From assembly GCA_051294905.1 (NCBI GenBank), contig CM119372.1, positions 31,870,001 to 31,934,000 on the forward strand: DNA of 64,000 nt, in the 5' to 3' direction. Under the pieces are notes generated by a model. That model was not told the origin of the DNA, made no database searches, and worked only from the letters and a program-made list of their open reading frames with translations. Of the stretch, positions 36,266 through 57,543 are shown piece after piece (position 1 is the stretch's first letter; each line of letters starts with the position of its first letter). Source of the stretch: Botryllus schlosseri (taxonomy: Eukaryota). The translations under genes were made by a program, and so were the position numbers.

Positions 36266-36463
36266 TCATTCATCCGCCTCACGAAGACATTCCGGGTCCG
36301 TAGCCGGATTGATGCATGCACCTGAAACCAGGAATTTAAATCGACATATGTAGCATGATTTAAAAATTATTTGTGCCTCACCAGCTTCATCTGCGAAAAA
36401 TAGCAGCCCCGTGATTATAGTTGTGAATGCGAGAAGTACTTTCATCGTTGCTGCGCTCTTCAT
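36266..36463 (-). CDS. Small secreted Cys-loop peptide precursor, copy 1 (intact); exons 36463-36382 and 36321-36266
   Basis: 60-nt GT-AG intron (GCTG|gtgagg...tttcag|GT). Spliced 45 aa: MKSAATMKVLLAFTTIITGLLFFADEAGACINPATDPECLREADE, with a hydrophobic signal ending A-G-A. Intron position is conserved in the paralog at 57346-57543. Confidence 0.75.
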   Translation of the reverse strand: MKSAATMKVLLAFTTIITGLLFFADEAGEAQIIFKSCYICRFKFLVSGACINPATDPECLREADE

Positions 36464-36524
36464 TTCGTATGCAGATGTAATGAAAATGCGTCTCGTTTTA
36501 TGCCGGCTCTGAACTTTCTGTCGT

Positions 36525-36533
36525 TATTTAATA
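36525..36533 (-). promoter_or_regulatory. Candidate TATA box of peptide gene copy 1
   Basis: TATTAAATA about 60 bp upstream of the ATG; absent in the damaged copies; ATTAAA polyA-like signal at 36179-36174. Confidence 0.4.
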
Positions 36534-37249
36534 GTTTCCTGATCAATGCATGAACGTAGTTCTGCTATCGTGTCAATAGAACTTTTTAACGACATCGCTG
36601 CGCATTTTATGTCGTCATTCCTGTGTATATTTACTGTACTATACTGTATACTGTATACTTATAATGTTTGTTATACGAAGGATTCACGCAGCAATGTGAC
36701 CTTACGTTTCGAGTTTGGCAGATGTCACTTATGATGTTGCCAATATATAGATATAATGGTTTGGGTGAAATTCGAAATATATTTCATGTTCAGATGAATC
36801 ACGACAGGTAGGCTAATGATATGTAATTGATTAGCCGAACGTTCTTGCTACAACAGCTGCTGGCAAAAACTTTCACTACAGGTCAAGAAGCGAGATGACT
36901 TGATACGAGGCAAAATGCAATGACTCGAGATAATCGATGTATAGGGACTGTGCAATTAAAAGAAATCCAACTTTCTGTCGGAAGTAGGACGGGTTGCAGT
37001 CACTACATCGGCCCACGTGTGGGCTTTCATATTGATCTAATGCAGGGGTTCTTGAAGATTTTTCATCTGTGTTCCCTTTCATATAATCTGTATGTATGGT
37101 GTACACCTTGAAAATGCTGCTGCATAAAGTTCACGCAATTGAAAGACAAAGCAAAACAAACTGTGTGTTTACACTCTGGAACACCATTTAACTGCGATAA
37201 ATGAGCTTGATTATTCTACTCGAATACATATATTCTGAGAAGTGATTAG

Positions 37250-53208: not shown

Positions 53209-53889
53209 CCATAAACTATGCTTTGGAATTACTAACATACTGGTTGTTCTTTTTAACATTTTTTCGGGTATGACGATAATGGGGCGACGATTTTTCACGA
53301 TCATCAAGGGTGCGTATGTAAAAAATATGAGAACCGCTGCTCTAAATAGATCCAATGTCACGGACCAAAATTCGGTTACACCAGAGTGCAGTAAATTGAT
53401 AGTTTCCCTCAATGCACTGATCGCGTTGTATGAAACGATAATATTCCGTCTCTGATCCGGCCATTGTCGCCTAAAAGAGCATTTATCTAAGATAGGCTGC
53501 ATCAAAACGCCATTGTGTGATTTATACCTCGTACCCGAGAATGCGGATCACTTACCCCTCGCATGACCAAAATACGACCGGCACCGAGCATATTTGAATG
53601 ATTTCTGCTTAAACATGAAAGATAAGCTCACCACAGATAACCTTCTCGTACGGCCGGAACTTCTGTCGACTCTCGTTGAGTTCGTCCTGGCCAGCAATGT
53701 GTAGATTTAGGCAATTTTTTAAGGTAAATGATTTGCGACGTATGATACGAAATTTTTGCCGAGGCGCACCTGACCGATAAGGTGATAAGCGCCACAATGT
53801 ACCATTTTCAGAATTAATATTGTTATTAATATATAAATATTATATTATTATATTATAATATTATTATTATTATATATATTAATAATAAT

Positions 53890-55648
53890 ACCGAATACAC
53901 ATGGAGACACAATAGGATTGGTCACTACATTCATCTTGAATCATGCAAACATTTTAACATCAACACTTCGACAAAAAATTGGAATGACTACAGCCCAGCA
54001 CCAGTGACAGAAAACGACCAAGTAAAAATTCTGTGGGATGTACCAGTTACAACTGACCGCGAAATCAGGAGCAACCGCCCGGATATGATAATCAAACTGA
54101 AATAGACAAGAGAATACTTGTTCATTGAACTGGCTGTCCCAGCTGATCACAATATAATGCAAAAAGAATCAGAAAAACAGTCGAAATACGCAGACCTCAA
54201 AATGGAATGCGAGAAAATGTGGCGATGCAAAATATACTTGTACCTAGGGATGGTGTGAACCTCTGAAAGGTTCAGGTTCGTGTGAACGCGAACCTTTTTG
54301 AAAGGTTCTGTGTGAACACGAACGTGAACCTCGTGACGTCACATGACGTCATATTGCTAATTCCAACCCTTTCTTTCAATGAAGTGATAGCCTAATATGC
54401 CCTATATTAATGTACACGATACCTAGCGAAGATTCGGCCCACATAATGCCGCAATGCTGAAGTACATATCGGCGTTTTAAACGTCGCTAAATGTATCAAC
54501 CGCGGTAATCAAAGGATATAATAATTGCATAAAATCAGTACATTCCGTCGCTTTGCCAACGATTTCGACGAGGACTTACCAAGGAATATAAGCTTACGCC
54601 TTAACGGTCTCAGCCAGACCGGACAATGTGTTCGTAGTCTGAGTATTGCTACATTGATATTGAGCAGAGTGTACAACGGGTTTCTATACTCGCTACCGAT
54701 GCCACAAACAACAAGTTATGCAGCAGTAGCACGCACCTTAATCGCACGGATTTGGTTTTAATGATACAGTAAAGATATGAAGTCAAGATTGACCCAGTAC
54801 GACCGTTCGATTTTTTAGAAGACGATATCAATGTCATTGATTGGTTGACTAAGCATCATTCGCTGACTACGTATATCGATTGCGGGTCAGGCTCACAGCA
54901 GAGAGTCACTAAATATTCACAAACGGAAAGCTGGATATTCCGAGAAAATTTTTGCAACAAAGCAAGTAAAACTTTTAAGGTTGTCGAGGTGCATGATGGT
55001 GCATGCTCGTTTAGTGTTGATTTTTTATGCTGCCAGCACCATGCATGGAGTGGCCCGAAATGCAATAAATTTGAGCCAAAGATCTTATAATGGAGCGAAA
55101 ATTACAATTTACCAAAAGGTTCACAGTGCAGAACCTACCAAGGTTCTGTTTTGAACGCGAACCTCTAAATTTCCAAGGTTCACACACAGAACGCGAACGT
55201 GAACCTCACGTTCACACCATCCCTACTTGTACCTATAGCCATTGGCGCTACAGGGGTCGTAAGCAAAAAACTCATGAGACATATCCAACAGATTCCGGGT
55301 AACGTTCGATTCGACATGATCCAAAACATCACGTTATTGGGCACTGTGCATATTCTTCGGAAGGCCTTGAATGCACCACTGGACTAAAATGACACTTGTG
55401 AATCACAGCATAATTTCTGTAATTTCGATTCTTCATTTTCAATCATCTCTATCTCTGCTCTGTAACCCTTGCCAATTCTTCATCTACTGCAATGCTGTAA
55501 TCTGACTTCTCCATGTATTGCATATGAATAACAATTTGACTGTATTACTGAAATTTCAAAAATTTACTCCAATCTCTCCATTTTCCTTTGGGGGCAGGTT
55601 ACTTCCCGCATTATGTGTGTATTTACCAGTTCTACTGTGAATAAAGAA
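53890..55648 (+). mobile_element. 5'-truncated R4/Dong-clade non-LTR retrotransposon (restriction-like endonuclease C-terminus plus 3' UTR), split by a MITE
   Basis: RHNRIGHYIH...KILWDVPVTTDREIRSNRPDMII...IELAVP...EKQSKYADL...VPIAIGATG...LLGTVHILRKAL; begins right after a (TAA)-rich tract. Confidence 0.9.
54245..55225. mobile_element. hAT MITE (same family as 15841-17430)
   Basis: TAGGGATGGTGTGAAC / GTTCACACCATCCCTA; exact TSD CTTGTACC. Confidence 0.95.
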
Positions 55649-57345
55649 TATTAGAGGGGACACTTCCTGGGGTCATTGCCGACTTGGAAAGAGCGCCAGT
55701 TTCAGATATGGAGATTTGGTCGCTGACAGTAACAGTAGTCACTATAGGTTTCAAAACACTGTTTCGGAAAACCCGTGAATCAATAGCTCTATTTGTGCAC
55801 TATAGTTACCTTCATGACTATACATTGTCCTGTCTTTCGCGATCCCACATATAGGCAGGTTTATTTGAAAAGTGTCAATAAGGCTCCTGCAGATGCTTAT
55901 TGTTTCACAACATTAAACTTTTTAACTAACGAATCAATGAATCAAGCAACTAATACACTAATTATCCAGCGACATTGATTGAGGGCGAGTTATGAACACA
56001 CATTCAAACACATCTCCATATCGGGCCGAAACGAAGTATACGATGATTTTAAGATAAATTGCCTTGCATTATTTTTTCACTGATTGTGTCTGTACTTGAA
56101 TTCGTTCAAAGTTGGGACGCTCACAAGACGTACTTATACCCTATATCTTAGGGTTACCATATTTAAGAATCGGGAAAGGATTAAACTTTTACCAAATCAT
56201 GAAAGTTATAGTTCACCGAAATTGTAAATAGCTGATTTTGAAATATTTACTGAAAATCTTGTCGTGTTGACTGAAAGGTCATCACTGTGATTCGACACCC
56301 GAATTATCCACTCGAACGTCCGGATTACCTATTTCGCATCAGTTTTGTCGATTTTCAGTTGATCCTGTCGATTAAACTATCTGTAAATGCTGTATAGGAA
56401 TATTTAGGTGTCCTGGGAGGATATTTTCAAGTTCCTGAAAAAGAAGGACATATACTCCTAGAGGAAGATTTATGCTAATCCTAGTATATCTTCAAGCTGA
56501 TAAATCAGAGCAGGGGTGATCAAACTGTGGTGCATGTACCCCCTGCGAATTTAATTTTTCTGGCACTATGATAATCTCCTGCAACGGCGAATTTTCCAAA
56601 ACACTTCCATGAATATATTTATTATTGAAGTAGCATCCAATTCATCTGTACCAGTTAAATGGCGTTTGAAAGTGCTAATACACATTTTGTTGTGTTTTGT
56701 CTTTCAAATGCGGGCACTTTAGGCAGCATAATTTTGAATAGCTACGCCATACATACAGATTAGTCGAAAGGGTACACAGTTGGAAAAAAACTGCATTAGA
56801 TCAATAAGTAAGTCTACGCGCGCCGATGTAGTGAGTGTATAACCTCTCCCATACTTTCGACCAAAAGCTGAATTGTTTTATTGCACAATGCACAGTAACT
56901 ACATCGGCTACTTGAGTCATTTTGTCATCAAGTGACCTCACTTCTTGACACGTTGCGAATTGTTTTGCCTGCAACTGTCACTGTTGCAGCGAGAACGTTC
57001 GGCGAATCAATTTTATATCATTAGGCTACCCGTCGTGATTCATCTAAACATGAAATATCGTCCAAATTCCACACAAACCTAACATCTATGCATTGACGAC
57101 ATCATAAGTGATATCTGCAAAAGCTCGAAACGTGAGGTCACATTGCTGCGCGAATACTTCGTATAACACATAGCATAATAGACACAGACATGACGACATA
57201 AAATATGCAGCGATGTCATTAAAGAGATCTATTGACACGACAGAAGAGTTCCGCTGCAGCAGCGATTAGGAAACTGAGAAGTGACGACAGAGAGTTCAGA
57301 CAAAGGCCTAAAACGAGACGTATTTTCATTTCATCTACATACGAA

Positions 57346-57543
57346 CTGAAGAGCACGGCAATAGCGAAGTTACTTCTCGCTATCGCAACTATAATAATCA
57401 CTGGGCTACTACTTTTCGCAGATGAAGCAGGTAAGGCACATACGTGTTTTTAATCATGCTTAATATGTCGATATTCATTTCTGACTTCAGGTGCATGCTT
57501 CAGAACTCAAGGCATGGGGTGTCTTCGTGAGGCGGATGAATGA
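57346..57543 (+). pseudogene. Peptide precursor copy 2; exons 57346-57430 and 57491-57543; ATG replaced by CTG
   Basis: 60-nt GT-AG intron (GCAG|gtaagg...cttcag|GT); spliced (L)KSTAIAKLLLAIATIIITGLLLFADEAGACFRTQGMGCLREADE*. Confidence 0.75.

Follow-up and report, generated by a model that had tools for sequence, protein, structure and literature searches.

Small cysteine-framed peptide genes with a rapidly changing second exon and two apparent scaffolds in Botryllus schlosseri

The window considered here is a stretch of 64,000 nucleotides from the tunicate Botryllus schlosseri (assembly GCA_051294905.1, contig CM119372.1, positions 31,870,001 to 31,934,000, forward strand), and it carries three paralogous loci for very small peptide precursors: c36 (36266-36463, minus strand), c39 (39174-39300, minus strand) and c57 (57346-57543, plus strand). 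All three are present where a first-pass annotation, made from the letters alone, had placed them. Its remark that the list of open reading frames (ORFs) hides an intron by reading through it is true for c36, where an ATG-started ORF of 65 aa (36266-36463, minus strand) traverses the gene's own 60-nt GT-AG intron (36322-36381). The signal-peptide exon and 60-nt intron that it assigned to the first two copies listed do exist as a pair, but the pair is c36 and c57, which have the same layout; in c39 the signal exon is absent and only an intron remnant and exon 2 are kept. A second intron, a third exon and eight more copies in the genome had escaped it. The tail C-L-R-E-A-[DN]-E-stop does end all three copies, and with up to three mismatches allowed this pattern occurs at exactly three places in the 495-Mb assembly, all of them the window copies.

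The only intact window copy is c36. On the minus strand, a TATA-like box, CATAAAA (36496..36502), whose function is suggested by its position, precedes the start site by about 30 nt. Exon 1 (36382..36470), delimited by an adaptor joint at 36470, hydropathy and alignment with paralogues, has a very short 5' untranslated region (UTR) followed by signal-peptide-like coding sequence, with in-frame ATGs at 36463 and 36445. Intron 1 (36322..36381) is of 60 nt, GT-AG and phase 1. Exon 2 (36248..36321) encodes a Cys (36316-36314), the core INPATDPE (36313-36290), a second Cys with the LREADE tail and the stop (36268-36266), and ends with 18 nt of 3' UTR. Intron 2 (35159..36247, 1089 nt, with ends CT..AC on the plus strand) lies within the 3' UTR, which is completed by exon 3 (35055..35158, the 3' end being approximate), placed by RNA reads and alignment and containing AATAAA at 35075-35070.

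In c57, on the plus strand, exon 1 (57340..57430) holds a signal-like frame without an in-frame ATG, the sole ATG between start site and intron (57422) being out of frame, and the TATA-like box is altered. Intron 1 (57431..57490, 60 nt, GT-AG) is followed by exon 2 (57491..57563) with core FRTQGMG (57499-57519), the tail, the stop (57541-57543) and a donor GT at 57564; an exon 3 homologue lies at 58458..58545, with boundaries set by homology. The c36 and c57 units form an inverted pair (34703-37247 with 56599-58907). Four X21 reads over 57362-57400 swap 37 nt of the signal exon for 4 letters, giving an in-frame variant 33 nt shorter that is not seen in the assembly. The third copy, c39 (39174..39300, minus strand, in a homology block at 39094-39677), retains core CTHHPRF and the tail in an exon 2 remnant; its signal exon is deleted, the acceptor AG lost and one nucleotide missing. 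Thus c57 and c39 are both broken.

Expression was followed by aligning reads from 7 of 24 candidate runs. Four are raw RNA (X20, X21, X22 and X24, from two studies; about 3-6% of each), and the other three (X1, X14 and X15) are contigs of uncertain kind. The spliced transcripts that had been predicted exist. Intron 1 of c36 is skipped exactly (60 nt) in an X15 contig bearing the c36 core. In the raw RNA, exon 1 is joined to another core, NPGSDRPW, by 3 joint reads each in X20 and X22, with loose-end reads of the same core in X20 (25) and X24 (4), and it is joined to the core of c57 itself in 2 X22 reads. Intron 2 of c36 (36247-35159) is removed in 4 X22 and 2 X20 reads, and 15 further X20 reads join 35164-36246, a few bases off, across a polymorphic T-tract. 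Because reads join at 36248, the tail and stop of c36 are exonic; this joint rules out that intron 2 begins with the tail, at the GT right behind the second Cys-Leu. The last junction comes 18 nt after the stop, and in the window type exon 3 is not translated. None of the read joints uses the acceptor near 35965 that homology had suggested, and a Cys-free exon 2 drawn from one loose-end consensus was dropped (agreement 0.48).

The ends of the transcripts are also marked. Template-switch adaptor is joined at 36470 in 26 X20 reads, mostly from paralogues, and at 57340 in 4 X21 reads; since such joints fall about 30 nt downstream of the TATA-like box, nothing indicates an exon farther upstream. 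In X24, 7 reads of paralogue type with a poly(A) tail stop just past the AATAAA in the third exon. In c36 no more than about 7 nt lie between the start site and the first ATG, and the paralogues start near the second, which makes a precursor of 39 residues more likely than one of 45. No depth is seen over 39177-39327, in c39, in any of the four runs aligned there. The bulk of the family reads are of a four-Cys type encoded on another contig, C1, and window-type reads are a small minority.

Searches of the assembly by DNA, by signal-exon pattern and by protein place the window loci in a family of at least 11 copies, spread over five places on three contigs. Ten were found by DNA, 8 of which were re-found by the signal-exon pattern, and the eleventh, on contig C3, by protein; all these counts are lower bounds. 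Seven copies have intact frames, namely c36 and six on C1 (L003-L007 and L009). Besides c57 and c39, the broken ones are L008, cut after the signal exon, and the C3 copy, L041, with a stop two codons past the first Cys. Gene units are 2.5-3.4 kb long. Genome search also located three 3'-only orphan fragments on C1 (C1:9091127-9093150, C1:16041225-16041570 and C1:20259641-20259785), which comprise the end of intron 2 and exon 3 with no exons 1-2 nearby.

The C1 copies have in common an upstream region, the signal exon and a phase-1 intron of 60-68 nt; exon 3 is found in five of the six, and for L009 none was found within 8.5 kb. Their exon 2 encodes C-x5-C-x6/8-C-x4-C and no acidic tail. The Cys-framed loop with an acidic follower, taken in the first-pass annotation as the plan of the family, therefore describes the window type, but that is a minority form, six of the seven intact copies being of the four-Cys type without the tail. 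Cysteine number in intact copies is 2, 4 or 5. The fifth, in L007 (C1 near 16045250), stands next to the fourth and makes an odd count; dimer formation or a defective allele are possible. The frame of the C1 copies is interrupted by intron 2 and would be extended by one to a few residues from exon 3. In L005, with the acceptor placed by homology, exon 3 would give Gly or Gly-Arg before the stop, an amidation-type ending. The net charge of exon-2 products is 0 to -4, and removal of the tail still leaves an acidic loop in c36.

The most distant copy (by midpoint root only) is L041, which has four Cys and an end, C-V-L-R-N-C-A-D-S-stop, comparable to the C-L-R-E-A-D-E-stop of the window. Its position and form suggest that the family began with four Cys, of which the window type retained the first and third, although the exon-2 nucleotide alignment is too poor to prove the order. 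The first and third Cys are a bonded pair in single-domain disulfide-directed beta-hairpin (DDH) peptides (PMC11891777). A high-copy repeat (at least 40 places) at L041:1440-1505 (C3 near 15448771) abuts the start of the C3 copy, and the family promoter is unalignable there. Another repeat, of 60-70 nt, lies inside intron 2.

Cores differ between animals. Cores seen in reads include NPGSDRPW (X20, X22 and X24), NPGSNQPW (X1) and a four-Cys exon starting ECIDDDDC (X21 and X22). For NPGSDRPW, the ECIDDDDC exon and one signal-exon variant no match was found in the assembly, an absence that is weak with a single assembly. The X1 form differs from that of X22 by two core changes, both non-synonymous, and the X20 and X22 forms of NPGSDRPW by one silent change. 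The NPGS-type form is fully spliced in three studies (P1, P8 and P9), and all five two-Cys cores seen keep the frame and both Cys. In exon 1, tail and exon 3 the NPGS-type transcripts are near c36, and they may be c36 alleles or come from a paralogue missing from the assembly; a candidate site for the latter is at C1:9.09 Mb, where an orphan 3' fragment is 85-90% like c36. With its flanking Cys, NPGSDRPW resembles a loop of kringle domains, C-R-N-P-D...P-W-C, probably by chance.

The first-pass annotation had described the cores as hypervariable between easily alignable introns and flanks. Pairwise identity among INPATDPE, FRTQGMG and CTHHPRF, with the best codon-sized gap, is 9/21, 7/21 and 10/21 nt, against 348/420, 269/348 and 271/345 (77-83%) in the matching upstream DNA and introns (Fisher p 7e-5, 4e-5 and 3e-3). 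As a control for the post hoc choice of region, all windows of the 1.1-kb alignment of c36 and c57 were scored, and the core is the lowest of 1035 21-column windows, with 9 matches; the next elsewhere has 11. The tail, which the first-pass annotation supposed might be trimmed at Arg, is by comparison unusually well kept: 41 of 42 nt of tail and UTR are identical between c36 and c57, which fits function or gene conversion alike.

The same contrast holds for exon 2 on C1. Intron 1 is 83-98% identical among the C1 copies and the start of intron 2 79-98% (79% in two pairs), whereas for exon 2 identity is down to 58-72% in 13 of the 15 pairs and stands at 99% and 86% in the two close ones. In those 13 pairs the proportion of non-synonymous differences (pN) is 0.38-0.51, that of synonymous differences (pS) 0.14-0.39 and intron divergence 0.05-0.19; pN exceeds intron divergence in each at p 4e-3 or lower, the pairs not being independent, and it exceeds pS in 14 of the 15 pairs. 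A codon model for the C1 copies, on a tree fixed from non-coding DNA, put omega for exon 2 at 2.33, on the basis of 6 sequences, 27 codons and an uncertain gap placement (likelihood ratio test versus omega=1: p 0.013, 0.015 and 0.005 under three models). For exon 1 omega is about 0.5-1, with no significant departure from 1 (p 0.5-0.6). Exon 2 has a tree length of 1.35, non-coding DNA one of 0.45 and exon 1 one of 0.28. Exon 2 thus apparently evolves under positive, diversifying selection.

As to the product, exon 1 has a hydropathy peak of 2.67, with small residues at -3/-1 in intact copies, and by this hydropathy and by analogy it would supply a signal peptide of about 23 residues, probably from the second ATG, so that secretion is predicted. 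A structural model of a C1 product, four intron-derived residues included, shows a beta-hairpin with strands at 17-22 and 25-29 (pLDDT 80, pTM 0.40), and the C1 peptides are predicted to form a disulfide-braced hairpin with C1-C3/C2-C4 pairing. The nearest fold neighbours, which are not significant, are the squash trypsin inhibitors MCTI-A and EETI-II (E 1.8; Z 3.2, root-mean-square deviation 1.7, 27 aligned).

The first-pass annotation recognised no known family in the precursors, and two very large protein searches, Pfam and the PDB gave no significant homologue, conotoxin signal superfamilies included, with sensitivity limited by the short queries. The protein search with the read-through ORF yielded one candidate, and none at E <=10 among proteins of 35-114 aa. 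The only match in 1.84 billion representatives (P0001) is to a tandem-repeat protein and involves the intron-derived residues 30-47 only, which marks it as chance. Four of 420 candidate stretches passed a metagenome scan; the matches are short, the E-values are relative to the candidate set alone, and these too are treated as chance. Pfam returned no family for the read-through ORF and L003, and sub-threshold matches only for four other exon-2 peptides; the PDB sequence search gave 8 matches (best E 0.02), and the best hit in the ESM Atlas (0.81, recognition 2287) is below thresholds. Reading TGA as selenocysteine was rejected, as there is no support from a selenocysteine insertion sequence and Rfam has no match in the window at gathering thresholds. 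No paper on the Botryllus family was found by title or abstract start, while supplementary gene tables of ascidian transcriptome papers could hold its genes under anonymous identifiers, and a term search of the main text of a single-cell paper on a related colonial ascidian found no such peptides (PMC12212465).

The architecture nevertheless has close parallels. MgCRP-I of the mussel Mytilus galloprovincialis is a lineage-restricted family of short secreted Cys-rich peptides with a conserved signal, a positively selected mature region and pseudogenes (PMC4558851). Like the Botryllus genes it belongs to a sessile filter-feeder, combines a conserved signal region with a hypervariable mature region and broken copies, and has no known function. 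It differs in its six Cys, two of them adjacent as a CC pair, in a pro-region of 15 residues that ends KR/RR, in its four exons and in a charge that is usually positive; the genes here have three exons and no pro-region, and their products four or two Cys and a neutral to acidic charge. The MgCRP-I framework, C(X3-6)C(X1-7)CC(X3-4)C(X3-5)C after a dibasic pro-region, is absent from the Botryllus peptides, which have 2-5 Cys and no KR/RR before the first, and no sequence similarity to MgCRP-I was detected. In conotoxin superfamilies, similarly, the signal exon and intron ends are conserved while the mature exon accumulates point changes and codon indels with dN>dS, and one signal sequence serves more than one cysteine framework; in I2 conotoxins, too, there is no N-terminal propeptide, and the precursor is extended at its C terminus (PMC3862624). 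The pattern of both these systems, a mature exon apparently under positive selection and flanked by a conserved signal exon and introns, is found here. Conotoxins come from the venom of cone snails, and their families have long introns and run to hundreds of members, whereas here intron 1 is of 60 nt, the copies number about 11 and the host is not known to be venomous.

At the level of the peptide, the C1-type spacing C-x5-C-x6/8-C-x4-C is like that of DDH peptides such as KASH2 of a sea star, as are the Asp before the second Cys, the Gly in the last loop and the Gly-Arg-type ending possible in one copy (PMC11891777). Four Cys and a beta-hairpin between the third and fourth are found in the C1 type, the hairpin by prediction only; c36 and c57, with two Cys, do not share the DDH plan. 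The fold scores are not significant (E >=1.8, Z <=3.2), and relative to squash inhibitors the C1 type is missing the reactive loop and the third disulfide. The ascidian peptides St-CRP-1/2 resemble the products of the family in being disulfide-braced, neutral and of about 2 kDa, and differ in having six Cys in a CC-C-C-CC pattern, against 2, 4 or 5 here (PMC13208793). The legume nodule cysteine-rich peptides (Pfam PF07127, Nodulin_late) have a four-Cys spacing similar to the C1 type. Of the seven proteins scanned, three of the five C1 exon-2 peptides gave sub-threshold matches to PF07127, the best at 17.0 bits (E 0.008) with a cut-off of 30.4 bits, and exon-only queries lower the score; the likeness is best read as convergence on a common Cys motif. 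The legume peptides also share the layout of a signal exon and a mature exon. Among ascidian peptides, turgencins reportedly have six Cys in another pattern.

The explanation that we favour, at somewhat better than even confidence, is that a transcribed three-exon family, whose exon 2 is apparently under positive selection and would encode a secreted disulfide-braced peptide, has a defensive role, its products binding variable proteins of microbes, parasites or competitors. It builds on what was observed of the family: how its genes are built and spliced, how few copies there are and that some of them are broken, how fast exon 2 changes and how cores differ between animals. Cleavage behind Ala-Gly-Ala, or what stands in its place, would remove the signal peptide of exon 1 and, with no propeptide to take off, release a four-Cys hairpin of 24-29 residues from the six C1 copies and a 16-residue single-disulfide loop with an acidic tail from the window type. 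Whole gene units would duplicate and some copies get lost, and between the fixed cysteines substitutions and codon indels would remodel the loops; such birth-and-death evolution would leave animals with differing repertoires. Fixed cysteines, fast loops, copy turnover and differences between animals together suggest an outside, changing target. Since the net charge is 0 to -4, the neutral-to-acidic peptides would bind a specific target (a protease, receptor or wall component) rather than lyse membranes. In style this would be a diversifying family of defence peptides of the conotoxin or MgCRP-I kind. A diversifying defensive or signalling family had already been proposed in the first-pass annotation, and spliced, transcribed, low-copy and diversifying Cys-framed precursors with a conserved signal-like exon were indeed found; two of the three window copies on which it was based are broken, and the window loci are a minor, partly decayed branch of the family. 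A further step is more tentative and in our judgement rather doubtful as a whole, namely that one signal exon feeds both a two-disulfide hairpin and a one-disulfide loop derived from it by loss of a matched Cys pair, in colony-specific repertoires of specific binders for defence or non-self recognition.

Several observations weigh against the defence explanation. Three of the four copies on contig C2 are broken. No joint with the core of c36 itself is among the listed joints of the raw RNA runs, and that core is seen spliced only in the X15 contig, from a run of uncertain kind. The closest C1 pairs are not significant singly (L003/L004 p 0.81; L005/L007 p 0.13), and the basis of the omega estimate is small. 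Exon-2 pS is somewhat above intron divergence, and homogenisation of introns or a raised mutation rate may contribute; intron homogenisation alone is not an explanation of omega >1. The fold searches gave no match at E 0.001 and none at Z >=5. Finally, synthetic peptides of MgCRP-I, the closest analogue, are reported to be without antimicrobial, cytotoxic or insecticidal activity (PMC4558851), so the hypervariable pattern does not prove defence.

The strongest alternative, less probable in our view though a serious contender, is that the peptides are ligands for recognition or signalling within the species (of gametes, of colony self and non-self, in settlement or in chemotaxis) that co-evolve with their own polymorphic receptors. 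Positive selection, differences between animals and a neutral or acidic charge fit such ligands equally well, and the possible amidation-type ending of L005 also speaks for them. Plant LURE peptides are said to offer a precedent. The copies, however, are not gathered at a single multi-allelic locus but lie at five places on three contigs, and many of them are dead; in the neighbourhoods, which are not annotated, no receptor gene was identified, and Pfam shows no match to a known neuropeptide family.

It is unlikely, in turn, that only the four-Cys genes of C1 are functional and that the two-Cys window type is a decaying offshoot whose pattern of core and tail arose from indels and gene conversion. 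The broken C2 copies and the small share of window-type reads agree with decay, and conversion could have made tail and UTR nearly identical between the intact c36 and the ATG-less c57. Decay should not, however, make the core more divergent than adjacent non-coding DNA, as it is by both the flank comparison and the scan of 1035 windows. Nor does decay sit well with the frame and both Cys kept in five of five two-Cys cores, the full splicing of the NPGS form in three studies and the exclusively non-synonymous core changes between the X1 and X22 versions.

Membrane-lytic antimicrobial peptides of the styelin, clavanin and botryllin kind, in which the acidic tail would be a masking propiece cut off at Arg, are a very improbable reading of these genes. 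Host, layout of a secreted precursor and acidic C-terminal residues after an Arg all recall those small secreted ascidian peptides, to which the first-pass annotation had compared them. The comparison breaks down over charge and size. Long precursors give rise to the styelin-type peptides, which are cationic, linear and helical (PMC9966394, PMC10608444), and botryllin is a helical peptide of 37 residues and charge +11.2 from a precursor of 158 (PMC9966394). The Botryllus family encodes no cationic linear helix of 23-37 residues; its exon-2 products carry 0 to -4, have 2-5 Cys and a predicted hairpin, the c36 loop stays acidic without its tail, and six of the seven intact copies have no acidic tail. 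A large C-terminal propiece is likewise absent, the c36 precursor having 39-45 residues. A non-lytic antibacterial role under the defence explanation stays open and is compatible with the St-CRPs, which are neutral with modest antibacterial activity (PMC13208793). The suggestion of a precursor of ribosomally synthesised and post-translationally modified peptides is not supported either: nothing points to the enzymes, with no long ORF near the loci, though no search for intron-split enzymes was made. Lastly, a transposon or segmental-duplication unit with incidental ORFs is largely refuted and scarcely credible, for although the window is a patchwork of duplications and short repeats lie in intron 2 and upstream of the C3 copy, exons 1-2 occur at only 10-11 places in 495 Mb (a lower bound that also agrees with the earlier expectation of no high-copy transposon), splicing, start site and poly(A) are precise, and the Cys stay fixed while loops change with omega >1.

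Some other features were met in passing. A 197-codon open frame at 6394-6987 (plus strand) has a His-Trp...Asp...Gln...Cys layout, which we take to be that of an adenain-type protease of Polinton/Maverick elements; Pfam and PDB searches gave no significant match. Two GH6-family matches above cut-off (L032 and L033, within C9:15025585-15068854) lie about 43 kb apart on the same strand and served as a tunicate marker, GH6 genes being described as horizontally acquired features of tunicates (PMC7464555). At 37875-38270 of the window RNA depth is 30-70 in X22, with many fixed differences and no ORF longer than 64 codons; the signal probably comes from transcripts of a related repeat or UTR located elsewhere. 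The duplications make up a patchwork over 8650-60955 at 72-90% identity, for example 44715-45646 with 55650-56593, 25856-28255 with 45660-47617 and, inverted, 8650-9720 with 59831-60955.

The general picture is of a family of known architectural kind but of a new lineage, with two scaffolds behind one signal exon, which we have not found described. Tunicates are the sister group of vertebrates, and the defence peptides described from them are mostly cationic antimicrobials. Presence/absence variation of genes has reportedly been described in mussels. The genes are invisible to ORF-based annotation, and their products were not found in the protein libraries searched. They also offer a natural case in which a two-disulfide scaffold has apparently been reduced to a one-disulfide loop. 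At 16-29 residues the products would be easy to synthesise and the proposals made here directly testable. A mature exon that outruns its own introns several-fold, together with animal-specific repertoires, points to an ongoing molecular arms race.

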